From: a virus
Lineage: Duplodnaviria > Caudoviricetes
Direction: 5' to 3' (one strand)
IMG/VR virus record: IMGVR_UViG_3300037067_012588
Length of the DNA: 64,000 nucleotides
Below, piece by piece: positions 2,619 to 63,386 of this stretch. The notes below the pieces were generated by a model that saw only the letters and a list, made by a program, of their open reading frames with translations, was not told the origin of the DNA and made no database searches. The position numbers and the translations under genes were made by a program. The first letter of the stretch is position 1. Every line of letters starts with the position of its first letter.

Positions 2619-3287
2619 TCAATTCCTTTTTTGCTTTGAATATAAATCATTCCACGAAGTCAAAATACCATCAGCAAAACCCCATTCAACAGCTTCCTCT
2701 GCAGAAAGGTAAACATCGCCCTTCTTATCCATCAATGCCTCAAGTTCTTGTCTTACCTCTTTTGCACTTTTCCCTGAAAAACGTTTTGACCCAACACAAC
2801 TTTCAACATAAATATCAAGCATCGTTTCATCAGACCTCTTCGAAAAATTGACAATGCTGTGAACCGTATGCGCCTCCCCGCCAACATCAAGCGTCCCCCA
2901 ATGAATCATGAAATATGAATTCGGGAGCATCAATCTCTTATCACCAGCTTGAAGAATCAAACTCGACATACTTCTCGCATGAGTATATGATACAATCGTC
3001 ACGGGATATGGCATCATTTTTATCGTGTCGTAAATCGACATACCCTCTTCCCAAACTCCACCACAAGTATGAAGATGAATAAGAACAGGTTTCTTTGCTG
3101 ATTCATGCCGAAGCATATGAAGATTCTTGATAACCTTGTTCGCCATGACATATTCTACGCCAGGTTCCTCGCCAACCTCTATCCCATTCAGTCGCTCAAC
3201 TCCATGAATCCAAACTTCTCGACTATCAAGATTGACCCAATACTCATGAATACTCTGGAGGTCAAATTCCGACATTTTTCCTGTCAT
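2619..3287 (-). CDS. clpP: ClpP-like ATP-dependent protease proteolytic subunit
   Basis: HTCGG...GMSIYDTIK, ARSMSS (catalytic Ser), FMIH (catalytic His), YLSAEEAVEWGFAD. Confidence 0.9.
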   Translation of the reverse strand: MTGKMSEFDLQSIHEYWVNLDSREVWIHGVERLNGIEVGEEPGVEYVMANKVIKNLHMLRHESAKKPVLIHLHTCGGVWEEGMSIYDTIKMMPYPVTIVSYTHARSMSSLILQAGDKRLMLPNSYFMIHWGTLDVGGEAHTVHSIVNFSKRSDETMLDIYVESCVGSKRFSGKSAKEVRQELEALMDKKGDVYLSAEEAVEWGFADGILTSWNDLYSKQKRN

Positions 3288-5208: not shown

Positions 5209-6099
5209 TCATCGTCCAGTCGTGGAAAAATTCAGGAAATGTTCGAAAATTTCCCACTTCTGCCCAACAGGCGGACGAAAACACTCATTCATCGGTCTTT
5301 GCCACCACTTGAACCCAGCAATATCGTGCAAAACCTTTTGCTGCTTACCCCTTCGACCTTGAACAAATAACTTTCCATCCGAGGTCTTTTTGTTTATGAA
5401 AAATGGACCATTAAAATGAGCATCAGCCCACTCAGCGCCAGACAAATATAAAACCTCTTTACCGAGTGCCGCAACGCATCCAACCAAATGTGCTTCATCT
5501 CCGAGCCCAACAAACGGCAGCGGAGAGTCTGCCCTTGCATACAACGCAAATTTTGATGTAAACGCCCACGCAGCAACCAAGTCCCAACTTGCAGAAACAT
5601 CCAAACACACGATTGATGACACAAACCAATCAATCTTTTTACCCACCAAGCTTTTTCCGTATTGCGCCCACTTCTCGGAAAAAACTATCTCGCCAGTTGT
5701 CGCCCCAGAAGGGTCAATCAGAAGCGCCTCATCCTTTTCAACCCAACGAGGAACAACGACATATCCCTGCTCCGCAGCCTCAAACGCCTCATCAATCCTG
5801 TCTGTCAAGACACTATCTGAATCTATCCAACAGACGATTCTTGCAATCTCCGATGAAAAGACAAAACAGCTTTGCTTTATCTGCCATGCCTGCTCTCGTG
5901 TTTCACATAACTTGCACGGAATTATTCCACCGAACGTAGGATGTTTGGTTATTTCATCAACTTGATCTTTGGTCAATCCTACATCCATAACAACAACAGG
6001 AATACTTCTACCGTAATAGATATAGACGCTGTTCATCAACGCCCGAAGTCCGAGAAAATATCCAGCATCTGACATCGTTACAAAGATACGGTCAAGCAA
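5209..6099 (-). CDS. GT-A fold glycosyltransferase (GT8-like)
   Basis: FVTMSDAGYFLGLRALMNSV, VVMDVGL, DxD motif WIDSD. Confidence 0.7.
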   Translation of the reverse strand: MLDRIFVTMSDAGYFLGLRALMNSVYIYYGRSIPVVVMDVGLTKDQVDEITKHPTFGGIIPCKLCETREQAWQIKQSCFVFSSEIARIVCWIDSDSVLTDRIDEAFEAAEQGYVVVPRWVEKDEALLIDPSGATTGEIVFSEKWAQYGKSLVGKKIDWFVSSIVCLDVSASWDLVAAWAFTSKFALYARADSPLPFVGLGDEAHLVGCVAALGKEVLYLSGAEWADAHFNGPFFINKKTSDGKLFVQGRRGKQQKVLHDIAGFKWWQRPMNECFRPPVGQKWEIFEHFLNFSTTGR

Positions 6100-6185
6100 G
6101 ACACTTCTCCAAAAAATCAGGACTGCTCAAAGGCAGCCCCAATACAAACCACTCTTACAGCCAGAAGGCATGGTGGATGTTTTTA

Positions 6186-6274
6186 TGGTAGCGGGGGCAG
6201 GGTTCGAACCTGCGCAAGCCTTATTAGGGTCTCCAGCTTATGAGGCTGACGAGTTACCACTTCTCCACCCCGCA
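6186..6274 (-). tRNA. tRNA-Met(CAT), initiator-like acceptor stem, long variable arm
   Basis: TGCGGGG...CCCCGCT-A-CCA, anticodon loop CTCATAA, T arm GCAGG-TTCGAAC-CCTGC, encoded CCA. Confidence 0.9.
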
Positions 6275-6280
6275 ATGTTG

Positions 6281-6394
6281 TTACTGCTTGTCTTTTTTCG
6301 CCTTCTTTGTGACCTTTGCTTCGTTCGAAGCCATAACCTTCTTCGACTTCTTCGATGCAACGGGTACTACTGTTCCCGTAATTTTCTTCGACAC
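6281..6394 (-). CDS. Small Lys-rich basic peptide (37 aa)
   Basis: GTG start after AAGGAAG; MSKKITGTVVPVASKKSKKVMASNEAKVTKKAKKDKQ; sits between ncRNAs. Confidence 0.55.
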   Translation of the reverse strand: MSKKITGTVVPVASKKSKKVMASNEAKVTKKAKKDKQ

Positions 6395-6421
6395 GTTTGT
6401 CTTCCTTTTGTAAGAAAAAAT

Positions 6422-6551
6422 CGACGCCAAAATTCGGCAAGGGCTATGTACTGCGGAATCGAACCGCTCCTCTGGGTTTAACGCCCAGCGTGCGCCATCA
6501 CACTCAGTCCTCAATCATGGTGGGGAAGTAACCCATGCCTGAAGAGCGTCG
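6422..6551 (-). ncRNA. Y-RNA-like unit 3, enclosing a tRNA-like domain
   Basis: Stems CGACGCT/GGCGTCG and GGCATGGG/CCCTTGCC, motif GGGTTACTTC, internal cloverleaf with a GGTTCGATTCC T loop; near rsr. Confidence 0.75.
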
Positions 6552-6562
6552 TAAAATAATAC

Positions 6563-6623
6563 TTCCGCCAAAAGGCGTGACAGGACTTTTTTCATAGAAG
6601 TAACCCATCACTGAAGAGCGGAA
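6563..6623 (-). ncRNA. Y-RNA-like unit 2 (minimal, stem only)
   Basis: Stems TTCCGCT/GGCGGAA and GTGATGGG/CCTGTCAC, motif GGGTTACTTC. Confidence 0.7.
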
Positions 6624-6632
6624 AAAGAACAC

Positions 6633-6926
6633 ACTCGATACCAATATGTTCTGACTAAGGCAACCGAACCCACAAGCCCATTCTGTTTGGGCGGCCGGTC
6701 GGGACCCTTTCGTCCCATGTCATTGAGCCTTTCCTCAAAGTCAACTGGACTTATCTCTTCCCAGCGGTCAGGGCTACTCCCAAGCCCATCAGCATGTCTT
6801 CTTTTTTTCCATGCAGTCACAGCTCTTTTGTATCACGATAAACCATCCATCGAACTGTCATAGCGGCTCACCGTATATCTTGTCTGAGTCTAGTAAGAAG
6901 TATCCCTAGTCACAAGCGTACCGAGC
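6633..6926 (-). ncRNA. Y-RNA-like unit 1 (about 290 nt, multi-hairpin inner domain)
   Basis: Stems CTCGGTAC/GTATCGAG and GACTAGGG/CCTTAGTC, motif GGGATACTTC, at least six internal hairpins. Confidence 0.7.
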
Positions 6927-6930
6927 TTAA

Positions 6931-6968
6931 TTTTCAAAGAGCTTTTCGTCGGCGACTATGGCACGACG
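6931..6968 (-). promoter_or_regulatory. boxB-like hairpin plus boxA-like antitermination element
   Basis: CGTCG/CGACG hairpin followed by GCTCTTTGAAAA, which resembles rrn boxA (TGCTCTTTAACA). Confidence 0.5.
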
Positions 6969-6983
6969 CTGTATTTCTGTCTT

Positions 6984-7011
6984 ACTATACGATCAAGAAC
7001 CCACAAATCAA
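6984..7011 (-). promoter_or_regulatory. Sigma70-type promoter of the ncRNA/tRNA operon
   Basis: TTGATT-N16-TATAGT with an upstream AT-rich tract. Confidence 0.55.
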
Positions 7012-7027
7012 CAAAAAAAATATTTTT

Positions 7028-7630
7028 TTACAGTACAACGCATTTGGCATCCTCAATCAACTCGTCGTTTCGAATCCCCTTTGGACACTTGTACCAAGAT
7101 GGAACACATCGTTTTGAATCCCGTGGGGTGTTGATAATCTTCCAAGTATTTCCAGCATTGATATTCGACACCCAAATACATTCTTTGAGTGGGACTGCGT
7201 AAAATGGTTCCTTAACACGCAATCCAGAGACTGGGTCCCTACACAGACGTGTAACAACTTCTGAACTTCGAATAACATCAAGTGTTGTCACAGAGAACAT
7301 ATTGAGGTTGTTGTTGAGTGAAAAATAATACTTCGACTCACTCTCTGGACCTTTCCTTTCGGGAACCCCAACATCTTCGTATTTGAATTCAAAATTAAAC
7401 CATCCTTCCCTCACCTCAACCTCTATAAAATGTGACTCTTTCAAAATCTTGTCAAAAATCAAAAAGTCTCCTTTTTTGAATTTTTCTTTTTGACTTGAAA
7501 GAACCGTCTTTAGCATATATTTGTTTGGAAACATGTTTGTCAAATAATTAGACGCAGCAACTACTCCCCTTGCGTTGTTCTTCAGATAAGAAGCATAGTT
7601 AAAGCTTCTGTTCCTTGCTTGTGCTGTCAT
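7028..7630 (-). CDS. Hypothetical protein
   Basis: MTAQARN start after GGAGG. Confidence 0.7.
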   Translation of the reverse strand: MTAQARNRSFNYASYLKNNARGVVAASNYLTNMFPNKYMLKTVLSSQKEKFKKGDFLIFDKILKESHFIEVEVREGWFNFEFKYEDVGVPERKGPESESKYYFSLNNNLNMFSVTTLDVIRSSEVVTRLCRDPVSGLRVKEPFYAVPLKECIWVSNINAGNTWKIINTPRDSKRCVPSWYKCPKGIRNDELIEDAKCVVL

Positions 7631-8724: not shown

Positions 8725-9075
8725 TCATTCCCTTGTCGCTAAATACACGACCCTATCCGCTGGAATCGTGTTCCTCACCCGAACCTCTATAATCCTGTTC
8801 GTTCCGTCATTCCTCAAATCAATCCTGTCTGAGTCCAAAAGAAGAACCTGATACAAATCCATCTCTGGAAGCCCTTCTGGAAACATCGGCTCAACATAAG
8901 TCAATGCCGTATCTGCTTCAGGCGAAGTGCAAATATATGGAATTATCCACTTCTCTTCCTTGCCAGAAACCTCGTTGAAATACTGAAGCTCCGACATCAG
9001 TATCTTCAACCCCTCTTGAAGAATACTCTTCCTGTTTACGGTCGGAGACCAATGATAAACCGTTGTCAACCTCAT
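8725..9075 (-). CDS. Small ART-fold / Tpt1(KptA) NAD-binding-domain-like protein
   Basis: VYHWS...SILQEGL...YICTS, and C-terminal NTIPADRV. Confidence 0.5.
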   Translation of the reverse strand: MRLTTVYHWSPTVNRKSILQEGLKILMSELQYFNEVSGKEEKWIIPYICTSPEADTALTYVEPMFPEGLPEMDLYQVLLLDSDRIDLRNDGTNRIIEVRVRNTIPADRVVYLATRE

Positions 9076-10715
9076 TTCATGTCCCTCAAGGCTTTCTCTG
9101 CTTCTCCCTTGGATAACTCCTCTCCACGGGAAGCATACTCGTCAGCCAAGTCCATCAAATACTTTCCAGCCTCGCCAACCTCGGGCAAACGCTTCCTGTC
9201 ATTAGGAGATATTCCAAGAATTGTCATAATCTCAAGACCATTCAAGACAGGCTTGCTCTGCATCTTTACAGGAGCCTCACGAACACGACGAACCTTCTCC
9301 CGCACCAAAGAGACCTCATCCGAGACTGGAAGCGAACCCATCTCGTCTGCAGCCGCTTGGTCAAGAACCGCATCAACTATCTCGTCCCCAAGGTCACGAA
9401 TGAACTTCCGAATACCCTTATCATCTGCCTTCACCAAGTGATACGGACGCATATGGTTCTTCACAACCATCGTCACCTTCTTGATGGTCTCCGCATCGAA
9501 CTTCAACCGATACAAGATAGCCTTTGCCATCTCCGCCCCAACATCCTCATGCCCAAGAAACCGTATCGCATCCCCAACAACCTCCTGAGAAGCTGGCTTC
9601 CCTACATCATGAAGCAATGCAGCCAACTGCCCTTCAATGGTCGCAGGAGCGTTTTTCAACACCAATATCGTATGCTTGAACACATCCCCCTCACCATGAA
9701 ACTTCTTCGGCTGCTTGACTCCAACCATGTTTTGGACTTCTGGAAGAACATACTTCAGCAAACCAGTCATCTTCATCAAACGCACTGCCTGACTCAACTT
9801 GCCAAGCTTCATAACCTTCGTCAACTCACCCATGATTCGCTCAGCCGAAACAATCTGAATCCTCTGAGCATTCCTCTTCACGGTATTCAAAACCGACAAA
9901 GGTATCTTCCACCCGTATTTGGCTTGAAAACGAACCAAACGAATCATGCGAAGCGGGTCATCGCTGAAAATCTTATCCAGCGAAACCCTCGGATGACCTC
10001 GGAGAACTCCATTCTCAATGTCATTCTTGCTGACACCAGTCATATCAACAATCTCACCAGTCGTCAAATCCTTCAGAAGCATGTTTGTTGTAAAATCACG
10101 CCTCTCAATATCCTCCTCAAGTGTTCCCGGCATGATTGACCTTTGCCTTGATGTGTCATCGGGGAACTGCTCCTTCATCGTGTCCGCAAACTCAATAACA
10201 GCTCCGTTGGTTTGAAACGTGTCACCCTCAAACGTAATATCCTCACGGAACGTAATCTGCCAGATTGGATAGTTTGCACCCATCTGACGAGGCTGAGTTA
10301 TAGCACCCTTGAACATACCCTTGAGGTATTTCGTCAATCGCTCCGAACCGCCAGATTCAGAAACAACAATATCCAAGTCCTTCGCCTCAAGACCCATGTA
10401 TTCATCTCTGATATAGCCACCAACAGCGTGCGCTTTGCCAGCCCACGGTGTTCCCGGTAAAACCACTCGAAGCAACCGCTCAACTTCTTTCTCGGCTGTC
10501 GAACCTGTCTTTTTCATTGCCGTCCTCTCCACTCGAAACTTTTTCAAATACTGAATCGCTTGCCCATTTGCCCCATGCCGAAGCATCTGGTCTACCTTGC
10601 CCTTGTGAAACGGAGAAACCCCTGTCGCAACGTATTTCTTGTCACCAATGAAATACATCAGCTCTTCATAAGATGGAATATAAGACAAAATAACAACCTT
10701 CGGGGCAGAATCCAT
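9072..10715 (-). CDS. cca: CCA tRNA nucleotidyltransferase with HD domain
   Basis: VGGYIRD, DLDIVV, EDIERRDFTTN, DDPLRMIRLVRF, SAERI, HGEGDVFKHT, LLHDVGK. Confidence 0.93.
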   Translation of the reverse strand: MDSAPKVVILSYIPSYEELMYFIGDKKYVATGVSPFHKGKVDQMLRHGANGQAIQYLKKFRVERTAMKKTGSTAEKEVERLLRVVLPGTPWAGKAHAVGGYIRDEYMGLEAKDLDIVVSESGGSERLTKYLKGMFKGAITQPRQMGANYPIWQITFREDITFEGDTFQTNGAVIEFADTMKEQFPDDTSRQRSIMPGTLEEDIERRDFTTNMLLKDLTTGEIVDMTGVSKNDIENGVLRGHPRVSLDKIFSDDPLRMIRLVRFQAKYGWKIPLSVLNTVKRNAQRIQIVSAERIMGELTKVMKLGKLSQAVRLMKMTGLLKYVLPEVQNMVGVKQPKKFHGEGDVFKHTILVLKNAPATIEGQLAALLHDVGKPASQEVVGDAIRFLGHEDVGAEMAKAILYRLKFDAETIKKVTMVVKNHMRPYHLVKADDKGIRKFIRDLGDEIVDAVLDQAAADEMGSLPVSDEVSLVREKVRRVREAPVKMQSKPVLNGLEIMTILGISPNDRKRLPEVGEAGKYLMDLADEYASRGEELSKGEAEKALRDMK

Positions 10716-11661: not shown

Positions 11662-12849
11662 TTATTTCGGCTTTACTGCTACAGTAATGTGGAATTCATG
11701 CTTTCCAAACATCTTTGGGGTAAAGCCATACTTCTTGCGCAAAGCTTCCAACTCCTTCGACTCAACTGTTACAAACCACACTCGCTCCATCTCGTCCCAT
11801 CCCTCTGGATTTACCGACTCAACAGAACGCAAGAAAAACGGGAAAATCTCCCCCTCTTCAGGAATAATCTTCGGCATACCCTCAAGCTCTTCATCAGTGA
11901 ACACAGAAATGTGCGCACCATGAGCATCATCGTATTGCATCCCTCTCGTCTTTATGGCATTAAACACAGACCTCTTGAAGTCTTCTGGAACCTTCAGAAC
12001 GCCATACGAACCATCACCTTCCTGAATCATAAAACGACCAACCATCGGAACATTTTTGTATTCTATATCCGTATCACTAGAGGCATACTTTTGCATTTTC
12101 TTTTTCTTTTCATCAATATGTTTCCGAAGCAAAACAGGAACATTATCCCAACAAAACTTCTCTTCTTTGTCATAATCACGATTCGGAATATCTTCATCCT
12201 TGGGAAAAAATTTCCCGTCTTCCTCAACAAGATGAATATTCCCAGATGACTTATCTGGAATCAAACAAAATCGATCCGAATAATTCCCTTTACTTTCCTG
12301 ACAACAGAAATAATACGATGATTCCTGCCAATCACCACCAGCAGAATGAAGCTCACATTTGAAACGCACAACATCTCCAACAATAATACCCTTCGGAGTA
12401 GTCCATGCATTTTCAGGCGTATCTACAGATATTGACTTCTGTGATATCGCTTCATCATTTTCCAAATCAAACGAAATACCAGATTCTTCGCTTGCCTCAG
12501 AAAACAACTTCCTCCATTCAGTTTTTTCCAAGTCCTTGAAATTGAAAAAATTCTTGTCGAGACCAGCAACCTTCGTATATCTGTCTCCAAACTTGGACAC
12601 CAAATCATGTTTGTCCAAAAGTTTCCTAAACCGACTATCTGTCTTCAATTTCTCACCAACAGTTTCGATAATCTCTGTCCGTGCCTTCGATAATGCGTCC
12701 TGAATTATTCGTGAAAACTCAGGAACTACATCTGCTGGAACAGTCTTATCCCGCTCAAGAGTGTTCTCATGCGCAAATTGGTCAACGTTCACCACAAAGG
12801 TAACATCGCCACGATCAGCAAGAAGAATAGAACCACGACGATAAGACAT
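11662..12849 (-). CDS. Multidomain protein with C-terminal 2H phosphoesterase domain
   Basis: Two HxS/T motifs, GAHISVF and EFHITVA, about 70 aa apart. Confidence 0.7.
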   Translation of the reverse strand: MSYRRGSILLADRGDVTFVVNVDQFAHENTLERDKTVPADVVPEFSRIIQDALSKARTEIIETVGEKLKTDSRFRKLLDKHDLVSKFGDRYTKVAGLDKNFFNFKDLEKTEWRKLFSEASEESGISFDLENDEAISQKSISVDTPENAWTTPKGIIVGDVVRFKCELHSAGGDWQESSYYFCCQESKGNYSDRFCLIPDKSSGNIHLVEEDGKFFPKDEDIPNRDYDKEEKFCWDNVPVLLRKHIDEKKKKMQKYASSDTDIEYKNVPMVGRFMIQEGDGSYGVLKVPEDFKRSVFNAIKTRGMQYDDAHGAHISVFTDEELEGMPKIIPEEGEIFPFFLRSVESVNPEGWDEMERVWFVTVESKELEALRKKYGFTPKMFGKHEFHITVAVKPK

Positions 12850-13729: not shown

Positions 13730-14572
13730 TCACTTGTAGACAGCCACAAATTGACCGTTAATCGCATTGTGGTCTTCTCCAACACGAACCTCAAACACCC
13801 AACCACCAACATGCGCTGCCAATCCCTGACGAGCCATAAACGGAGTTTGGCGACAAAATGTTCCAGATTGACAAATACAAATGTTCCGATAAGAAGGAAT
13901 CATCTCAGCCTTGTGATAGTGTCCAATACACAACATCTGTGGCTTCAGTCCTCCCTCTATCGATTCCGCTATCTTCTGAGCACGATACGAAACCGCATAC
14001 GATGAACCTCCACCAGGATGCAATAACATAATCTCATACGGACCATTTGGTGTCTCATAACGAATACGAGCTTGGTCTTCTCCCAAAAATTTCCACCCCT
14101 CACGACGCTCCTCAAGTTCCTTGCCAACAGAAACACCACAAAGATTCTTAAACGATGAATCGTGGTTCCCTGTAATAAAACTCACACGAACCTTCGAAGA
14201 CAAACGCAACGAACCAAATCGCTCAAGCTGCGCCTCCAAACCAACATCACGAACCTCAAACTCCTGACCACGATATATCTTGTGACCATCCAATACATCG
14301 CCTGTCACATAACAGTCATCAATACCAAGACTCTCAAGATAATCAAAATAACCCTCAAGAGCACCATCATGTGCATACAAACTGCCAATATGCAAATCAC
14401 CAATTATTCCAAAACGAAGCAAACATTCCTTACTCTTCTCCACATGAACCTTGTTCTGAACTCCGGATAATGCCTCTACTTTCCGACGCTCAACCTCCAA
14501 CGAACGCTCAAGTGCCGTAATCTTCGGCTGACCATGAGCACCTTCAAAATCTGAAAGACTTTTTCCAGCCAT
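13730..14572 (-). CDS. Calcineurin-like metallophosphoesterase
   Basis: GDLHIG, TGDVLDG, GNHD, LLHP, GHYH. Confidence 0.9.
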   Translation of the reverse strand: MAGKSLSDFEGAHGQPKITALERSLEVERRKVEALSGVQNKVHVEKSKECLLRFGIIGDLHIGSLYAHDGALEGYFDYLESLGIDDCYVTGDVLDGHKIYRGQEFEVRDVGLEAQLERFGSLRLSSKVRVSFITGNHDSSFKNLCGVSVGKELEERREGWKFLGEDQARIRYETPNGPYEIMLLHPGGGSSYAVSYRAQKIAESIEGGLKPQMLCIGHYHKAEMIPSYRNICICQSGTFCRQTPFMARQGLAAHVGGWVFEVRVGEDHNAINGQFVAVYK

Positions 14573-14591
14573 CACAAACACTCCTCTCAAT

Positions 14592-16684: not shown

Positions 16685-16951
16685 TTAATCTTTTGGTTGT
16701 GAAATCTCTGCCTTCATTATCAAATCCCTGATTCGTATTAGATCGGAAAGCTTTCGGAGAATCTCAATCTCCATATCCAGAGCCTTTTGGAAATAGGCAT
16801 CCGCTTGTTCACCGTTCTTATGTTTCAGGTTCGCTTCGCCTTGTTTGACGAACGAATCCCACTGGTCTTTTGCTGCATCATAGATGGCTATTTTCTCTCT
16901 CAGTGACTTGCGCATAACGGAAGTAACCCATGAATAAGTCAGTTTTCCCAT
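16685..16951 (-). CDS. Hypothetical helical protein
   Basis: MGKLTYSW start. Confidence 0.6.
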   Translation of the reverse strand: MGKLTYSWVTSVMRKSLREKIAIYDAAKDQWDSFVKQGEANLKHKNGEQADAYFQKALDMEIEILRKLSDLIRIRDLIMKAEISQPKD

Positions 16952-17340: not shown

Positions 17341-18459
17341 TTAAATGTTCTTACCTAATGATACAATCATATCAGGCAATATGGACAACAAAAAATCGAT
17401 TTCTTTTTCCGTATTGAGTCTTCCGAGCGAGAATCTCACAGAAGAATGACAATCCGCAACAGACAACCCACAAGAACGAAGGACATATGAAGGCTTTGTT
17501 GTCTTGGCAGAACAGGCACTACCTGACGAACAGCAAATGTCGTGCCGATATGAGAGACTTTTCACAAGAGAATGAGATTCGATGCCTTCAAAGGAGAAAT
17601 TGGATATACCAGGAACACGAGAAGCCGAAGCCGCTATCAGACTGGCTGTTGGAATACTATTCAAGATACCATCTTCCAGTCTTTTTGTAAGAGCGGTAAC
17701 TTGAATATAATCTCCGAGATTCTCAGCAGCGTATCCAAACCCAACAGCAAGGGGCACAGGAAGCGTTCCGGGGCGCAACCCGCCCTCTTGACCGCCTCCG
17801 TGTAGTAACGGAGCCATTTGAACGCCAGAGCGCACATAAAGGGCTCCTATGCCTTTTGGTCCGTTGATTTTATGGGCAGATATCGAAATCATATCGGCAA
17901 TCTGAGCTTGAAAAGGAATCTTTCCAAAGGCTTGAACGGCATCTGTGTGGAACAAAATCTCTTTCTCACGGCAAATAGATGACAGTTGAGATATTGGCTG
18001 TATAGTCCCAATCTCATTGTTCGCCATCATAATTGTCACAAGAGCAGTATCTGGACGAACAGCCAGAAGAAGATCGTTTGGATTCACTCTCCCGTTTTCA
18101 TCAACAGGCAATAACGTGCAGGAAATACCATGCTTCTCCAAACTTTGGAGTTTGGCCAGAATCGCTTTATGTTCAATCACAGATGAGATGATGTGCTTTT
18201 TCCCAGTCGTTTCGATAGCAGACTGAATAGCCCAGTTATCAGATTCTGTTCCACCCGAGGTGAAATAAATCTCGTCAGACTTGCAGGAAAGCGAATAGGC
18301 TATTCGTTCACGAGCTTCCTCAACCGCTTCTGCCGCATTCATTCCAAGTATATGAGTCGACCCAGCATTTCCATATTCTGATAAGAAATACTCCATCATT
18401 CTGTCCGTGACTTTCAAAAGAACCGCCGTTGTTGCTGCATTGTCGAAATATATGCTCAT
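17341..18459 (-). CDS. iscS: Cysteine desulfurase (IscS/NifS family)
   Basis: YFDNAATT, FTSGGTES, HTDAVQA, SAHKINGPKGIG (PLP Lys), SSGSACS (catalytic Cys). Confidence 0.95.
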   Translation of the reverse strand: MSIYFDNAATTAVLLKVTDRMMEYFLSEYGNAGSTHILGMNAAEAVEEARERIAYSLSCKSDEIYFTSGGTESDNWAIQSAIETTGKKHIISSVIEHKAILAKLQSLEKHGISCTLLPVDENGRVNPNDLLLAVRPDTALVTIMMANNEIGTIQPISQLSSICREKEILFHTDAVQAFGKIPFQAQIADMISISAHKINGPKGIGALYVRSGVQMAPLLHGGGQEGGLRPGTLPVPLAVGFGYAAENLGDYIQVTALTKRLEDGILNSIPTASLIAASASRVPGISNFSFEGIESHSLVKSLSYRHDICCSSGSACSAKTTKPSYVLRSCGLSVADCHSSVRFSLGRLNTEKEIDFLLSILPDMIVSLGKNI

Positions 18460-25585: not shown

Positions 25586-26755
25586 TTAGTCCATATACTC
25601 GATTTTCCCGCCGTCATTCGACTTTCCTTCAAGGTCGACATTCAGGCACGTCTTTGCCGCAATCGCATACACCGAACGTTCTTCTTCGTTCGCCAGACCA
25701 TCGTATACAGCATTCCGAACCGCATACCCAACATCACCCCAGACTCGGAAAGCATTGCTGATTTTGACCAGCGTGCGTGTGGTGAAAGGCGTCTGGCAAG
25801 CACCAGTTTTAATCGAACTGCGAACCTGTGCTGCAAACTTCGTCATGTTTGCGACGAAGCGTTCGTCCCTTGTACGCTGAAGCATAATCTTCTGTTCAGC
25901 ATCAACCATGTACCCAAACTTGAACGGATAGATGCGGTCGAGCGTGCTGGCATCCTTCATCACCGCCTGAGCCGTGTAAACCGCCTGAGTGATACTGTTG
26001 TTGCCACGACCCGCATTGTTGCCCGTCAGGACAACCCGAAAATTGCTGTGGCAATAGTAGGTCTTTCCCTCGTGCGTGATGTGACGCCGTTGTTCCTCAG
26101 TCCAGAACCCGTTGAACAGAAGCGCAGTCCCTTCATCGAGCGAACCAAACTCGTCAAGGCACAGGAGGGCAGCTTGACCAACCTCGTTGCCGTCTTCGTC
26201 CAATCCGCAGGTCGCCGCTTGGAGAATCGTTCCGAGAACGAACTTGGTGATGGATTGGTTTGTAACCTTGTCAGTCACCAACTCCGTTTTGCCCATCATA
26301 TGGACAATCTGGGTTTGCGGAGTGCAGGAAAACTGGAAATACTTCCTGTTTGTTTCGTTCGCCAAGTGTTCGGCGATGGTTGTTTTCGCACAGCCCGCAG
26401 GTCCGATGAAGTAAGGGACAGCGGGAATCTTGTCTTCGAGAAGACTCTTGATGCGCTTGTAATTCGGCGGGAGAAAAAGGCTGTGCTTGGTGATGTCAAC
26501 ATCGACAGGCTTTTTCTCAACCTCTTCCTTCTTCATCTTGATGTCAGGAGCAGCTTCCTTCGAAACCCCAGCTCGTGACACCTCGAAGATTCCCTTGTCA
26601 TTGTCAATTTTCTGATAGGTGATTTTGTCCTTGAGGAGAGCGTTCCGAAGAACACCGCCAAGGCGAGAATAAAGCTCCTTGTCCTCAATCACAACGTTGT
26701 TGAGGGTTCCAAGCTTGCTCAGGATTAAGTTCTTGTCGTCTTCGATGGTTGACAT
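25586..26755 (-). CDS. CobS/CbbQ/NirQ-like AAA+ ATPase
   Basis: GPAGCAKT, LCLDE, LTGNNAGRG, DASTLDR, FTTRTL. Confidence 0.85.
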   Translation of the reverse strand: MSTIEDDKNLILSKLGTLNNVVIEDKELYSRLGGVLRNALLKDKITYQKIDNDKGIFEVSRAGVSKEAAPDIKMKKEEVEKKPVDVDITKHSLFLPPNYKRIKSLLEDKIPAVPYFIGPAGCAKTTIAEHLANETNRKYFQFSCTPQTQIVHMMGKTELVTDKVTNQSITKFVLGTILQAATCGLDEDGNEVGQAALLCLDEFGSLDEGTALLFNGFWTEEQRRHITHEGKTYYCHSNFRVVLTGNNAGRGNNSITQAVYTAQAVMKDASTLDRIYPFKFGYMVDAEQKIMLQRTRDERFVANMTKFAAQVRSSIKTGACQTPFTTRTLVKISNAFRVWGDVGYAVRNAVYDGLANEEERSVYAIAAKTCLNVDLEGKSNDGGKIEYMD

Positions 26756-26791
26756 GCTTCTCTCCTTTTGGGTTAAGCGTTTCGTTTCACA

Positions 26792-26828
26792 AAAGAACAT
26801 CGTCCAAGGAAGAAATTTCTGGAAAGAA
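26792..26828 (-). promoter_or_regulatory. Repeated GACGATG promoter-like motif
   Basis: Core 26798-26804. Confidence 0.7.
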
Positions 26829-28202: not shown

Positions 28203-30290
28203 TTACAAGCGAACCTTCCCGTTGGTCAGAATACTTGCGAATCTCTGAAAGAACTTGACCCCCATCGCCTCGATGCTATCGAGATAGACGAAGAAATCTT
28301 CACCGTAATACTTCGCAGGATTTTGGGTTCCAATTCCGAACCCGTATACTTCCGTTCCTTCCTTGCGAAGCCTGTTGCACACATTCTTCAACTGCTGTGC
28401 CATTACGGCATTTGCATCCTTCGTCGTGTGTCCAGTGTACGGTTCACCATCGCTGAGGCTGAAAATAATCTTCCGACGTTCCTTGCGCTTGGAAATCCGA
28501 ATGCTTGCAAGCTCGACAACTTCGCAGTCAAGGTTGTTATTGTGAGCCCCACTGTGAACAATCGTTCCACGAGCAACTTGCCAAGAATCGTTGAAGGACT
28601 TGTAAACTTGCATCATCATCGGGTTCGTGCGGGTGAAGGGGCTTTTGTGGTATTCATCTTGGCTGAATGTTCCAGTTGTCGTCGAGCCAACAATCTCGAA
28701 CGGAATTCCAAACCGAGCCATCACTTCGCCAAGGGCAATCAACATCTGGCGAGTCTGGCGAAGCTTTGAGTTCATCGAATACGACTCATCGAAGATGATT
28801 GAGACAGCCGTATCAAGGCGTGAGCCGTCAATCTGGTCACGGAACACAGCCTTTGAAAGCCCACGAGCAGCCGCAGCAAGGTTGTTCTCGTCAAGTATTC
28901 CCGTCTCTCTGTGCTGGCGGTTCTTGACCTTTGCTTGCGCCCGAAGTGACTGTTCGAGAACCGAACCCATTACGACAACCTTGCCGTTGATGTTGCTCAA
29001 CTCACTACGGTATGCAGCGTCATCAGCAGCCGTCTTTTCGACCTTCCGAACAACATCGTTACGGCGGTCAGGAAAATACTGCTTCGCCGAAGGAGGAAGG
29101 TTGTCAATCTTACTCTGAATGTCCTTGCAAATCGATTCGTATTGAGTGTCACCCTTTGCCTCTTCATCGAGTTCGGCGGCAGTCTCTTCGTCCTCTTCTT
29201 TGGTGGATTCAGCTTTCTCGCCAGACTTGCTCTTTGAAGGTTTCCCATCATCGCCCTTGACAGTTTCGTCCTTGGCTTTCTCGGAGCCTTCATCGCCCTT
29301 GTCACAAGCGTCCTCAGAGCCTTCGTCAGCGTCTTCGGTTTCGTCAGCATCGCCCTCGTCAGCATCACCTTCGTCTGTATCGCCTTCGTCCTCTTCGTTG
29401 GTGTCCTCATCCTTGCCAGACTTGCTCTTGCTTTCCTTGGAGTCTTTTTCGTCCTCGCTGGAATCGCCTTTGGAATCTTCGGAATCTTCGCTTTCCTTGG
29501 CGTCTTTTTCATCTTCGTCTTCAACATCACCAGCAGAAGAGGGCTGGCTTTCTTCGCCCTTTTCGCCCTTCCCTTGTTCCTGTTTGTCGCCCTTTTCCTG
29601 CTTCTTTTCCTGCTTCTGTTCCTGTTCCTGCTTTTGTTCCTGCTTCTGTTCTTTCTTCGCTTCGAGAATCTTGGCGTGAATCTTCTTCGCAAGTTCAAGC
29701 GTTGCCTTGATGCCCTGCGAGCGAGTAATTTTGCGGACTTCATAGAAAAGTTCGAGGGCAACATCGACATACTTTTGTGCAGTCGGTGTCAGAACCCAAG
29801 AAGGGGTCAAACCCTTTTCGATAAAAATCATCGCATGAAGGGCTTCCATGAGCGGAGCGTTCATTTCACCTGTCGAAACCAGTGAGCCAGTCTTGCGGTT
29901 GAAGTAAGAAGCAGCCTCAAGCATCGCAGGTCCAACACCAGCAAAATCCTGCGAACCGTAAAACTCGATTCGGTTGTCCTCAAGAGCGTTGAGGATGGTC
30001 TTCAAAGCTAAGTCCTTCGGAAACTCACTCCGTTTCAGACCGCAAGAATACGTCAGGTGGAGGGCTTCATGCCAGCAAGCCGTCGTGAGGAGAAGGTTGT
30101 CCTGTTCGTTCGGAAGGACAGGGCAAACGCCGAGGTGAAGAATCTTCTTGTTGTCCTCAACACAAATCCCTTCAGCGTGGGGAACGCAACCCTTGACGTC
30201 AAACCGAATCTCGGTTTTGTCGTCGTTGGCGATAAACTTGGCGGCGCTTGTGTATCCGACTTCCTGAGCGTTGACCGAAAATCCTGCCAT
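28203..30290 (-). CDS. CobT-like vWA protein with HExxH N-terminal domain and acidic linker
   Basis: WHEALH...NALEDNRIE, long Asp/Glu-rich linker, MIDAS DESYSM, LSDGEP, GFGIG. Confidence 0.85.
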   Translation of the reverse strand: MAGFSVNAQEVGYTSAAKFIANDDKTEIRFDVKGCVPHAEGICVEDNKKILHLGVCPVLPNEQDNLLLTTACWHEALHLTYSCGLKRSEFPKDLALKTILNALEDNRIEFYGSQDFAGVGPAMLEAASYFNRKTGSLVSTGEMNAPLMEALHAMIFIEKGLTPSWVLTPTAQKYVDVALELFYEVRKITRSQGIKATLELAKKIHAKILEAKKEQKQEQKQEQEQKQEKKQEKGDKQEQGKGEKGEESQPSSAGDVEDEDEKDAKESEDSEDSKGDSSEDEKDSKESKSKSGKDEDTNEEDEGDTDEGDADEGDADETEDADEGSEDACDKGDEGSEKAKDETVKGDDGKPSKSKSGEKAESTKEEDEETAAELDEEAKGDTQYESICKDIQSKIDNLPPSAKQYFPDRRNDVVRKVEKTAADDAAYRSELSNINGKVVVMGSVLEQSLRAQAKVKNRQHRETGILDENNLAAAARGLSKAVFRDQIDGSRLDTAVSIIFDESYSMNSKLRQTRQMLIALGEVMARFGIPFEIVGSTTTGTFSQDEYHKSPFTRTNPMMMQVYKSFNDSWQVARGTIVHSGAHNNNLDCEVVELASIRISKRKERRKIIFSLSDGEPYTGHTTKDANAVMAQQLKNVCNRLRKEGTEVYGFGIGTQNPAKYYGEDFFVYLDSIEAMGVKFFQRFASILTNGKVRL

Positions 30291-53912: not shown

Positions 53913-54890
53913 TCATCGTTCGACGACATATTTCTTTTCGACTTGGACACCAACATCTGGTCCACGCCAGTGCGGAGAACACCAAATAATCCTCCCAGCA
54001 AGCTTTCCCTTTGTGAAATGCTTGAAATGACCAACAACACGAAAACGAACGGTCATCTTCCGACCACAAGGTTCGGATTCATCATAAACAACCCTTGTCT
54101 TGGTCATCTTCACAATGTTTGCAACACGAAATCCCGACCTAACAACTTCAGGAGACTTCTTAGAAGGCTTTTCTCGGACAACACGCTCAACAATACTCGA
54201 AGGAGAAGTAATGAAAAAAACCAGCTTCAATATTTGAAGCAACGACTTACTTACAGTCTTTTTATCAAAATCATCCTTTGGACACATTCCATGTATGTCC
54301 TCTTCCGAAAAAACATAATCATCCTTCGGATGAATAAACGCCCAATTTGACTTCATTGTCTGACTATTGTAACATACAACAATCCATGTTAGTTCGTTAT
54401 CAAAGGTTTTTTCCTCAAGAAGCGATCTTGGATCATTTAGTTCATACTTCGATATTCCATACTCAACAGACCTAAAACACGCAACATCCCATGTATCGCC
54501 AGACCCATCTGGGAACTCAGTTAACTCTGGAATCTCTATGATGATTTCAGGAAAAGGAAGCCTGACAGCATTAAACGGAACCGAGCGTATATCGGAATCA
54601 AGAATATCTTTCACCAACTCCTTGTCTTCGAAAATAAACGGAACAGTGACACCTTCGACAATAGATGCAGCAGTGGTCATCAAAATCGGACTATCATCGG
54701 GAAGCTTTCCTTGCTTTCTCAAAACCAATTCAGCAGCCTTCCAAACAATAATCGGGGAAGCTGAATCGAAACTAACATCTAAAACTGAAGCATCAAGCAC
54801 ATTACTCTTTTTGACATAATCACGAAAGCCTTCAACAAGTTTCCTGAAGGCATTTCGGATTCTGTCAATCTTGTGTATTTTTGTCTTCAT
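53913..54890 (-). CDS. Conserved phage hypothetical protein
   Basis: C-terminal VVGHFKH...WCSPHWRG motif. Confidence 0.7.
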   Translation of the reverse strand: MKTKIHKIDRIRNAFRKLVEGFRDYVKKSNVLDASVLDVSFDSASPIIVWKAAELVLRKQGKLPDDSPILMTTAASIVEGVTVPFIFEDKELVKDILDSDIRSVPFNAVRLPFPEIIIEIPELTEFPDGSGDTWDVACFRSVEYGISKYELNDPRSLLEEKTFDNELTWIVVCYNSQTMKSNWAFIHPKDDYVFSEEDIHGMCPKDDFDKKTVSKSLLQILKLVFFITSPSSIVERVVREKPSKKSPEVVRSGFRVANIVKMTKTRVVYDESEPCGRKMTVRFRVVGHFKHFTKGKLAGRIIWCSPHWRGPDVGVQVEKKYVVER

Positions 54891-56203
54891 TCTCCGCCAG
54901 CCTTGACATTGTAGAAAGGCTTGACACGGAACAAAATCGTCGCAGTCGGTGCAATGGCAGCCTCAATCATCGCAGCGTCCTTGTAAGCCATAGGCGACTC
55001 ATCAATGGTATCCTTGCTGACAGAGGTCGTGAAGATTCCCTCCATCGACTTCTGATAGTCAACCAAATCAATCGAAGCCTTTGCCTGTGACCGTGACAAC
55101 ACTCGCCCAGCACCATGAGGAGCGGAGAAGTTCCAATCGGCATTCGACTTGCCATCACAAATCAAAAGACCATCCCGCATGTTGAAGGGGATAATCATCC
55201 GCTCACCAACATACGACCGAATCGCTCCCTTGCGGATAATCCCATCCTCGAAGGAAATGAAGTTGTGAACACACTCGATTCGGTCATACTCAGTAACATC
55301 ACCAACAACCGAACGAATGGAAGACAAGACCTCCTCAGCGATAACCATACGGTTCATCGCAGCATAGCCCTGAGCAAGGAACATCGCCTTCAAATACAGC
55401 TCCATGTTCGAACCAGAAACGAACGACGAAGACTTGGAATCGAAGTCGAGCTTCGCATCTTCCTGCTTCTTCGTAATCAACTTGCTGATGTCCGACTTAG
55501 CAATCTCGCCTCGCCCAGCCATATCCCGAACCTTCTTGGTATACTCCTGCAAGTCAGGGATTTCCTTCACAGTCGCCTGAGCAATACCATCGAAATGCTC
55601 GCAGACACGCTTTCCGAAGTTCCGTGAACCAGTGTGAATCGTAACCCACGAATAAGCGTTCTCGTCAACACCCATTTCGATGAAGTGGTTTCCACCACCA
55701 AGCGTCCCGATGGAAATCCAGAAGCGACTGACGTCCATACCGATACTACGAACGAAATCCTCGATATCGGAAACGGAAACCGAACGGAAGCTCGCAATCA
55801 CGGAAGACGAAGACTTATGCGCTTCCTTACGGAGAAAGTCAACAAGACGCTCCTTGATGCCCTTGGACTCCTTGCTCCGGGCAGTCATACCCATAGGAAC
55901 ATGATGGCGAATCAAGACATCAATCTTCTTCAGCTCATCTTCCCAAGGACGAACATTCACACCCACAGAAAGCATTCCGCATCCGATGTCCACTCCGACC
56001 CAGTTCGGCACGACCTTATCACCAGCCTTCATGGTGAATCCAATAGGAACACCTTTTCCGGCATGAGAATCTGGCATCATAACAATAGTTTTGCCAATTG
56101 TTGCAGGATGATTTGCAATGTTAAACACTTGAGACATAGTTTCCTTTTCAAAACAATCAAGCGTCAACAACGCTTCAGAATATTTTCCTTTGATTTTATA
56201 CAT
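54887..56203 (-). CDS. rtcB: RNA ligase RtcB
   Basis: MPDSHAG, VGVDIGCG, GTLGGGNHFIE, HTGSR, HNF, RKGAI, SAPHGAGR, DESPMAYK. Confidence 0.96.
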   Translation of the reverse strand: MYKIKGKYSEALLTLDCFEKETMSQVFNIANHPATIGKTIVMMPDSHAGKGVPIGFTMKAGDKVVPNWVGVDIGCGMLSVGVNVRPWEDELKKIDVLIRHHVPMGMTARSKESKGIKERLVDFLRKEAHKSSSSVIASFRSVSVSDIEDFVRSIGMDVSRFWISIGTLGGGNHFIEMGVDENAYSWVTIHTGSRNFGKRVCEHFDGIAQATVKEIPDLQEYTKKVRDMAGRGEIAKSDISKLITKKQEDAKLDFDSKSSSFVSGSNMELYLKAMFLAQGYAAMNRMVIAEEVLSSIRSVVGDVTEYDRIECVHNFISFEDGIIRKGAIRSYVGERMIIPFNMRDGLLICDGKSNADWNFSAPHGAGRVLSRSQAKASIDLVDYQKSMEGIFTTSVSKDTIDESPMAYKDAAMIEAAIAPTATILFRVKPFYNVKAGGE

Positions 56204-56390
56204 CGATTCTCTTTCTAATCTCGTTTCTGATAAGCTCCATAGCGGAAGCCTTATCTGACTTGATTTCTTTTTCCCATATGACAAAAAAACCGTACCCCAT
56301 CGATTCAATCAACTGGCTTCTTTTCTTATCTTTTTCCCATTTTTCCGAAAACAGCCCCATCTTTTTATCCTTGATAAATAATCCCTCCAA
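56196..56390 (-). pseudogene. Fragment resembling the C-terminus of a Vsr/DUF559-like endonuclease
   Basis: KDKKR...GYGFFVIWEKEIK; N-terminal catalytic part missing. Confidence 0.4.
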
Positions 56391-63111: not shown

Positions 63112-63148
63112 AAAGAACATCGTCCAAAGAAGAAATTTCTGGAAAGAA
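63112..63148 (-). promoter_or_regulatory. Repeated GACGATG promoter-like motif
   Basis: TTCCAGAAATTTC-N-TTGGACGATGTTCT; core 63118-63124. Confidence 0.7.
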
Positions 63149-63152
63149 AAAC

Positions 63153-63186
63153 AAAAAAACACAGCCCCATCTGGCCAGACGGGGCT
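63153..63186 (-). terminator. Intrinsic terminator of the permuted tRNA-like RNA
   Basis: AGCCCCGTCTGG/CCAGATGGGGCT stem, then GTGTTTTTTT. Confidence 0.75.
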
Positions 63187-63205
63187 AAGGCGCTACTTGG
63201 CTGCT

Positions 63206-63293
63206 GCACTGGCGTATGCTGTTCTAGCCACTTGAACTACACGCCCAATCGGGCGAGGAGGGACTCGAACCCCCAACCTGCACAGGCACTGGC
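63206..63293 (-). ncRNA. Circularly permuted tRNA-like RNA (YrlA-like topology)
   Basis: Order: TGTGC, AGGTT, T arm GGGGG-TTCGAGT-CCCTC, acceptor CTCGCCC-GATT-GGGCGTG, TA, D arm GTTC-AAGTGGCTA-GAAC, A, GCATA. Confidence 0.8.
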
Positions 63294-63349
63294 AACTAGG
63301 CATTGTGGTTTCCGGAAACCACATTTACCGTCTTCTTTCGCTTGCCTCA

Positions 63350-63386
63350 TAAGAACATCGTCCAAGGAAGAAAATTCTTGGAACTA
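63350..63386 (-). promoter_or_regulatory. Repeated GACGATG promoter-like motif
   Basis: TTCCAAGAATTTTC-N-TTGGACGATGTTCT; core 63356-63362. Confidence 0.7.

Follow-up and report, generated by a model that had tools for sequence, protein, structure and literature searches.

Tandem Y-RNA-like RNAs with a common handle and different inserts lie upstream of a phage Ro60 gene

Introduction

Y RNAs are thought to act as adaptors in which one module docks Ro60 and another recruits partners, and to our knowledge there are few natural examples in which adaptor modules have been swapped. In metazoan Y RNAs the Ro site carries the motif GGUCCGA. Here we analyze a stretch of 64,000 nucleotides (hereafter the window) from the IMG/VR virus record IMGVR_UViG_3300037067_012588 (Duplodnaviria; Caudoviricetes), in which three tandem RNA units, U1, U2 and U3, lie on the minus strand upstream of a gene for a Ro60 (TROVE) protein. 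An original prediction, made by a model from the letters of the DNA, had described these units as modular, Y-RNA-like RNAs, and we followed it up with structural, comparative and genomic analyses.

Much of what such a locus contains has precedents. Several Y RNAs per rsr locus and polycistronic precursors of Y RNAs and tRNAs are established, with the Yrn2/tRNA-Asp/Yrn1 polycistron and YrlA/YrlB as examples of one precursor (PMC4201824). YrlA is typified by a T arm, a closed acceptor hairpin and a D arm in this order, the Rsr site of bacterial Y RNAs is considered to be marked by the motif GNCGAAN0-1G, and YrlA-like RNAs have been reported from 22 phages (PMC4201824). Phage Ro60 genes are known, those of jumbo phages included (PMC7824862), and the Ro60 of phage phiLo binds two upstream Y-like RNAs that were found by their CGAA motif (PMC12135203). 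Tandem modular Y-like RNAs upstream of a phage Ro60 gene are thus already published (Chen 2014; phiLo 2025).

Results

Each of the three units closes on itself through the same terminal stem, which we call the handle: an outer helix, a CUUCA/GAnUUUU internal loop and an 8-bp inner helix (G-N4-GGG/CYY-N4-C), followed by single-stranded WUACUUC. The stems quoted in the original prediction pair as described. The outer and inner stems of U1 are CTCGGTAC/GTATCGAG and GACTAGGG/CCTTAGTC; those of U2 are TTCCGCT/GGCGGAA and GTGATGGG/CCTGTCAC, the latter with one G-U pair; and those of U3 are CGACGCT/GGCGTCG and GGCATGGG/CCCTTGCC, the latter with one U-U mismatch (7/8 pairs). RNAfold recovered both helices in U1, U2 and U3 (z = −3.65, −3.28 and −2.02, respectively), and 17 of 17 positions of the U1 handle pair in the register of the wider family (minimum free energy (MFE) −101.1 kcal/mol). 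The motif GGGWTACTTC occurs four times in the window against 0.08 copies expected, a number that none of 100 shuffles reached, and three of the four copies belong to U1, U2 and U3. The fourth copy (GGGTTACTTC, 16920-16929) lies inside a long open reading frame (ORF) without matching stems and was rejected as a chance occurrence. The predicted positions, strand and common architecture of the three units were confirmed, as was the very different nature of the parts that they enclose (Table 1).

We built a covariance model, R1, from eight short units (U2 and units of other loci); by construction it cannot span a long unit such as U1. Searched against the window, R1 returned U2 at 73 bits (E = 1.4 × 10−17) and U3 at 44.3 bits over the whole unit (E = 1.5 × 10−9), with no further match at E ≤ 1. 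To gather the family, IMG/VR was scanned with an exact 16-base pattern and the matches were checked for stems, which yielded 30 distinct units in at least 13 uncultivated phage contig lineages; short units orthologous to U2 occur in at least 12 other loci. Read 5′ to 3′, the family consensus consists of an outer helix of 7-9 bp ending C-R-C-K, CUUCA, G-N4-GGG, WUACUUC, the insert, CYY-N4-C, GAnUUUU, and GGYG with the rest of the outer helix. Distant members have GAG or GGC in place of GGG, with matching changes on the opposite strand, and U-rich tracts follow many of the outer helices.

The sequences of the stems vary across the family while their pairing is kept. RNAalifold on the eight short units found exactly the outer and inner helices, with a compensatory change in 10 of 15 pairs. 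Across 18 model-aligned units, 92.2% of cells pair compared with 67.3% in shuffles, and 74 cells carry double changes where 21.8 would be expected, a count reached in 0 of 500 shuffles. Sliding the 3′ partner by 1-3 columns lowers pairing to 36-47%. The 18-unit alignment was fitted to the model and is therefore biased toward structure, a bias from which the RNAalifold analysis, run on a plain MAFFT alignment, is free. The handle is a conserved structure, and its two covarying helices bear out the earlier statement that the stems differ in sequence yet pair.

R1 proved specific, with no match at E ≤ 1 × 10−4 in 724 kb of viral DNA containing a chance half-motif. Among 80 bacterial and archaeal loci with the exact 16-base pattern, one gave a strong match and the other 79 were chance or weak. 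This one is a 3.2-kb contig bearing a promoter, a unit, tRNA-Met and an open-ended ORF, which appears TROVE-like from the resemblance of its start to the window protein. A looser 14-base pattern produced no locus confirmed by R1 (0/78) among the matches listed. In viral contigs, a family of prophage coding sequences (L002, L003, L006 and others; loci are denoted by L numbers) and further chance matches to the exact pattern lacked the stems and were discarded. We found no description of this RNA family in Rfam 15 or in the literature searched.

The RNAs are modular. In relatives of the window the same handle carries very different inserts, as expected of the interchangeable adaptors that had been proposed. 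They include short hairpins, a T arm on its own, permuted tRNA mimics of the YrlA type and multi-hairpin domains of 150-240 nt. The inserts of L015, L025 and L028 hold a T arm, an acceptor hairpin and a D arm in YrlA order, and L009 55-122 matches positions 23-86 of Rfam RF02553 (29 bits, E = 2.6 × 10−4). Within the window, the loop of U2 reads UUACUUC...GAAAAAA, and the insert of U1 is made of several hairpins with GRAAGR loops, joined by UGAC-type linkers. Long units homologous to U1 are present in L001, L004, L008 and L016. When U1 is set against a 75%-related contig, its hairpins show compensatory changes and the UGAC-type linkers are conserved; in the long units of five lineages, covariation extends to two tandem 5-bp hairpins whose loops read GRAAGR and to both handle helices (16/28 pairs compensatory).

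The insert of U3 had been called a tRNA cloverleaf, which holds in part. It contains three hairpins in native tRNA order (core 6444-6514): the first is D-like, the second is a 5-bp arm whose 7-nt loop reads CGUUAAA, and the third is a canonical T arm, GCGG-UUCGAUU-CCGC. As a tRNA it fails on several counts: loop position 33 is G and not U, the helix equivalent to the 7-bp acceptor stem is imperfect (7/9 pairs) and runs on into the handle, ARAGORN did not call it, and its best Rfam match, to the tRNA-Sec model, scores 23.8 bits (E = 0.055) against a gathering score of 47. Judged by its sequence, U3 is a tRNA-like element, a predicted tRNA mimic with a topology other than that of YrlA, and not a tRNA. 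It is absent from L001, the closest relative, where 5578-5600 resembles the 5′ half of U3 (ACGGCATTCTTCAGAAGATGG) and runs straight into a small ORF. This suggests that U3 was lost in L001 or gained in the lineage of the window.

The rsr gene predicted downstream of the array was recovered as a Ro60 gene that starts 1.24 kb downstream of U3 on the same strand. Pfam, Foldseek and the clade alignment together give its product the make-up of a Ro60/TROVE protein, a TROVE HEAT-repeat ring followed by a C-terminal vWA domain with a MIDAS (metal ion-dependent adhesion site) motif. The AlphaFold model had a mean pLDDT of 62, with the N-terminal 130 residues poorly modeled; in a Foldseek search with this model, 12 of the 12 best chains were Ro60/Rsr (TM-score by target length 0.56-0.70). 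The columns of the MIDAS motif, D416-x-S418-x-S420 (DxSxS), are invariant in the clade alignment. By sequence, the protein's nearest relative of solved structure is Thermus phage phiLo Ro60 (9KOP/9L5Y; E = 7 × 10−19).

The handle is strictly linked to one clade of TROVE proteins. Going from RNA to protein, TROVE is encoded in seven of nine phage records with the handle, the other two being fragments estimated to be 9% and 34% complete; units lie no more than 1.5 kb upstream of TROVE and on the same strand in the window and in seven motif-selected contigs. Going from protein to RNA, eight further loci from five lineages, none of them picked by RNA, came from a search with a profile built on the TROVE proteins of the clade; in all eight (5/5 lineages) a same-strand unit lies upstream at a distance of no more than about 450 nt. 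Seven of these eight gave an R1 match at E ≤ 1 × 10−6 within 350 nt upstream; the remaining one has a long-type unit, recognised by eye, that R1 cannot span. L081 also has a unit upstream on the same strand. With the siting used by Chen et al. 2014, on the same strand and within about 4 kb of a Ro60 gene, units are found in the window and at least 13 related contigs. The clade's proteins share 42-75% identity among themselves and 21-31% with the TROVE proteins of six cultured phages, and near the TROVE loci of phiLo, Rabbitrun, Domovoi, CcrPW, phiKT1024 and SRB7757, R1 found nothing but one weak match in phiLo. When the window ORFs were compared by BLAST with 11 related neighborhoods, TROVE was the sole protein conserved in all of them. 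The original prediction had named a motif unlinked to TROVE genes in other genomes as the outcome that would count against it; in both directions the linkage held.

We next compared the units with described Y RNAs. In the broad sense they have a Y RNA stem, since folding and covariation give a long stem of the 5′ and 3′ ends, a conserved internal loop and a separate variable module. Like YrlA (RF02553; PMC4201824; bioRxiv 10.1101/312249), they lie near Ro60 on the same strand and have a two-helix end stem with an internal loop followed by YUAY, and their inner domain is modular, with a permuted tRNA mimic under this handle in L009, L015, L025 and L028. In layout the Rfam YrlA stem parallels the handle: its 5′ strand has GCUU...GGG...YUAC, and in its 3′ strand ACUU(UU)G precedes the outer helix. 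The Rfam model's stem portion fails to align with the handle; its consensus, placed on Gordonia phage Rabbitrun, has an outer helix, a 5′ GCUU loop, a helix ending in GGG, CUAC, and a 3′ ACUUG. Unlike YrlA, the handle has CGCU(C)UUCAG...GGG-WUACUUC and not GNCGAAN0-1G, the tRNA-like part of U3 is in native order with an anticodon-like arm, and U1 and U2 have no tRNA-like part. The permuted YrlA core (T arm, acceptor hairpin, D arm) was found in neither U1 nor U2, and in U3 the T arm comes last. By description U2 fits the short Y RNAs of the YrlB/Yrn2 type (PMC4201824), although its stem motif differs.

The phiLo system (PMC12135203; 9KOP, 9L5Y) resembles the window in combining a phage Ro60 with tandem upstream Y-like RNAs (Yrl1 and Yrl2); it differs in that the proteins are about 26% identical and R1 has no match in the upstream region of the reported Yrl RNAs. 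The weak phiLo match mentioned above (L039 3830-3894; 16.6 bits, E = 0.018) lies just downstream of the Ro60 gene and overlaps coding sequence phiLo_25. It has an 8-bp helix, GGUUUUGG/CCAAAACC, followed by GUACUUC, with CGACUUU on the 3′ side, and may be an unannotated relative of the handle. With metazoan Y RNAs (RF00019) the units have in common a terminal stem whose internal loop or bulge is conserved, which in the metazoan RNAs docks Ro60, and a variable effector loop. They differ in having no GGUCCGA bulged helix and in belonging to a bacterial-type transcription unit with a tRNA.

The features of the locus are collected in Table 1. A short leader separates the promoter match from U1, after which U1, U2 and U3 follow closely spaced, and L001 has a comparable TTGCCT...TATAGT ahead of its array. 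The original prediction gave the units a promoter and an orientation in common with tRNA-Met. The orientation stands; the promoter is a consensus match only, and co-transcription of the tRNA with the units is probable. A tRNA-Met is likewise placed between units and TROVE in L001, L008, L016, L081, L125, L126 and L135. In the window copy the variable region is long, about 19 nt, and the first pair is non-standard and flagged in the Rfam alignment; the L001 counterpart is 92 nt long. A tmRNA gene lies directly upstream of the units in L008 (2095-2506), L125 (3154-3515) and L126 (3174-3581), where the gene order is tmRNA, units, tRNA-Met, Ro60. The small ORF between U3 and tRNA-Met had no PHROG or other family match, and has a counterpart of 33 residues at the same place in L001 (5618-5720), with the stretch ASNEAKVTK in common. 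The 296-residue ORF ahead of Ro60 matched neither Pfam nor PHROG, lacks homologues at 11 related TROVE loci, and looks like a lineage-specific insertion. At gathering thresholds, Rfam found two tRNAs only in the whole window, and a blastn search of 6100-7100 against GenBank phages gave no match.

Table 1 Features of the window discussed in the text, with positions counted from its first nucleotide.
Feature	Position	Strand	Remarks
σ70-like promoter candidate, TTGATT-16 nt-TATAGT	6984-7011	−	Consensus scan, 9/12 matches; ahead of the RNA array
U1, long unit	6633-6926	−	Handle around ~225 nt of hairpins
U2, minimal unit	6561-6625	−	Handle closed by a ~24-nt loop
U3, unit with tRNA-like domain	6420-6553	−	Handle around a ~88-nt insert
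Small basic lysine-rich ORF, 37 aa	6281-6394	−	GTG start, preceded by Shine-Dalgarno-like AAGGAAG; between U3 and tRNA-Met
tRNA-Met(CAT), 89 nt	6186-6274	−	ARAGORN; Rfam tRNA 54.7 bits
Terminator-like hairpin and U run	6116-6143	−	Consensus scan, 11 pairs, then TTTTTGG; after tRNA-Met
ORF without assigned family, 296 aa	5209-6099	−	Between tRNA-Met and Ro60
Ro60/TROVE protein with vWA domain, 595 aa	3390-5177	−	Pfam TROVE E = 6.6 × 10−23, vWA_Ro60 E = 1.8 × 10−11
ClpP	2619-3287		
CCA-adding enzyme with HD domain	9072-10715	−	
2H phosphoesterase	11662-12849	−	
Calcineurin-like metallophosphatase/phosphoesterase	13730-14590	−	
IscS-like aminotransferase	17341-18459		
MoxR-type AAA protein	25586-26800		
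CobT-type VWA protein	28203-30290		
RtcB	54887-56308	−	
YrlA-like RNA of a different stem class	63153-63385	−	CGAAAG motif near the 5′ end; terminator hairpin; 58 kb from Ro60

The window also encodes a separate YrlA-like RNA of the CGAA type. Its core of T arm, acceptor hairpin and D arm (63213-63285) matches the Rfam YrlA model at 41.9 bits (E = 4.2 × 10−8; gathering score 69), and the RNA is kept at the syntenic site of a 253-kb relative (L139) with 77% mean column identity. A repeated motif, TTCTTCYTTGGACGATGTTCTT, stands before it on the minus strand at about 63345-63375 and again at about 63115-63145, after its terminator; this motif may be a phage-specific promoter.

Discussion

On balance, we think it likely that U1, U2 and U3 are co-oriented, probably co-transcribed Y-RNA-like noncoding RNAs of the phage, belonging to a divergent family whose handle docks the phage Ro60 and whose inserts can be swapped. 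Most likely the family adds a new and divergent branch to the Y RNAs already known to bind Ro60. We treated it as Y-RNA-like throughout, although it departs from described Y RNAs in its sequence motif and in its Rfam score. What appears new is a handle consensus without CGAA that is restricted to a single TROVE clade; the range of modules that one handle carries, with a native-order tRNA mimic and a large conserved multi-hairpin module among them; and the coexistence of handle-bearing RNAs with a canonical-type YrlA.

Several observations weigh against Ro60 as the partner of the handle. None of the 5′-strand Ro-binding motifs (GGUCCGA, GNCGAAN0-1G or the CGAA of phiLo) is present; the handle reads ACGCU(C)UUCAG, with only CG in common; that the metazoan motif is not matched exactly had been noted in the original prediction. 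The Rfam scan for YrlA that the prediction had proposed was negative for all three units: across 5900-7200 there was no match to YrlA (RF02553), Y_RNA (RF00019), CsrB/Rsm, tmRNA or riboswitch models even at E ≤ 10, and the 69-bit gathering score of RF02553 is reached by none of U1-U3. The 253-kb relative has at least six units with the handle in tRNA arrays that are 38-57 kb away from TROVE, so adjacency to TROVE is not obligatory. The CGAA-type RNA at 63 kb could, moreover, be the true Ro60 partner; with two stem classes in one phage, either the phage Ro60 receives both or the two classes have different protein partners. Because of this RNA and the remote units, we place Ro60 binding by the handle, which synteny points to, at probable and no higher.

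The same observations can be read as favoring a factor other than Ro60, such as a host or phage enzyme that processes or modifies tRNA, an RNase or the CCA-adding enzyme, so that the units would be punctuation of tRNA sets, processing cassettes or decoys for tRNA enzymes, and TROVE a mere neighbor. The units always stand among tRNA or tmRNA genes, in agreement with such a role, as are the remote arrays, the missing CGAA site and the CGAA-type RNA elsewhere in the genome. We nevertheless regard this as unlikely, since TROVE is the only neighbor protein conserved across 11 otherwise unrelated neighborhoods, the handle is confined to records of one TROVE clade or to small fragments, and in L132 and L134, two of the five lineages selected by protein, TROVE is accompanied by units but not by a tRNA. 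A plain processing stem of the RNase III type is further opposed by the conserved loop sequence and by short units that contain nothing to excise. That every lineage has units immediately ahead of TROVE in the same orientation, and that many outer helices are followed by U-rich tracts, would also suit cis-acting leader elements of the Ro60 operon, that is, autoregulatory Ro60 sites or attenuators in place of free trans-acting RNAs. We give this little credence, given that units and TROVE are separated in the window by the small ORF, tRNA-Met, the terminator-like hairpin and the 296-residue ORF, that copies exist in remote tRNA arrays, and that some inserts are complete YrlA-type tRNA mimics.

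A further alternative concerns the U1 insert only, which could be a protein sponge of the CsrB/RsmZ type displaying GGA motifs in its hairpin loops. Several loops do read GGAAGA or GGAAAG, and GGA is about twofold enriched in the long units of L004, L008 and L016 (10 compared with about 5.5 expected). In U1 itself there is no such enrichment (7 compared with 7.3 expected, with three of the seven mostly unpaired in the MFE fold), CsrB, RsmY and RsmZ gave no Rfam match at E ≤ 10, and the conserved loop motif is GRAAGR and not ANGGA, which together leave the sponge very improbable.

If the handle does dock Ro60, the locus may work as follows. A single primary transcript would start at the promoter (7011-6984) and end at the terminator (6143-6116), in keeping with Y RNA/tRNA precedents (PMC4201824), and cleavage at the tRNA and at the base of each outer helix would release discrete RNAs. 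Each unit folds into the handle, as its covariation shows, and the handle would then dock on the outer face of the phage Ro60 ring, where the insert could present to it a partner-specific surface or substrate mimic. The modules presumably differ in their roles: U3 would offer a tRNA-shaped surface to tRNA-recognising enzymes or nucleases, U1 a multi-hairpin scaffold, and U2, as a minimal YrlB-like unit, possibly a simple gate. The setting would likely be quality control, surveillance or repair of tRNA and other RNA during infection, a role that fits because the window encodes a CCA-adding enzyme, a 2H phosphoesterase, a metallophosphatase and RtcB; Ro60 together with these RNA-repair genes echoes the Salmonella rsr-yrl-rtcBA operon. 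Alternatively, the RNAs might capture host PNPase, as has been proposed for phiLo (PMC12135203).

A bolder possibility, which we hold only tentatively and regard as doubtful, is that a clade of large uncultivated phages has a Ro60 ribonucleoprotein with its own code, with CUUCA/GAnUUUU and UACUUC replacing CGAA, and at least five swappable modules, which are a minimal hairpin, a T arm by itself, a permuted mimic of the YrlA type, a native-order mimic with a UUA-centered loop, and a multi-hairpin domain of 150-240 nt. Beside the canonical CGAA-type YrlA of the same genome, this would give a single phage two orthogonal Y-RNA systems; one might, for example, serve the phage Ro60 and the other a host Ro60 or another factor.

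The family provides a natural series in which one handle bears varied cargo, in phages with tRNA arrays, tmRNA, a CCA-adding enzyme and RtcB. Its covariance model can be used to annotate similar RNAs in phage metagenomes. If docking on Ro60 by the handle holds true, the rules of Ro60 recognition would extend past CGAA. Searches based on CGAA, as current ones are, that for phiLo included, would miss this family.

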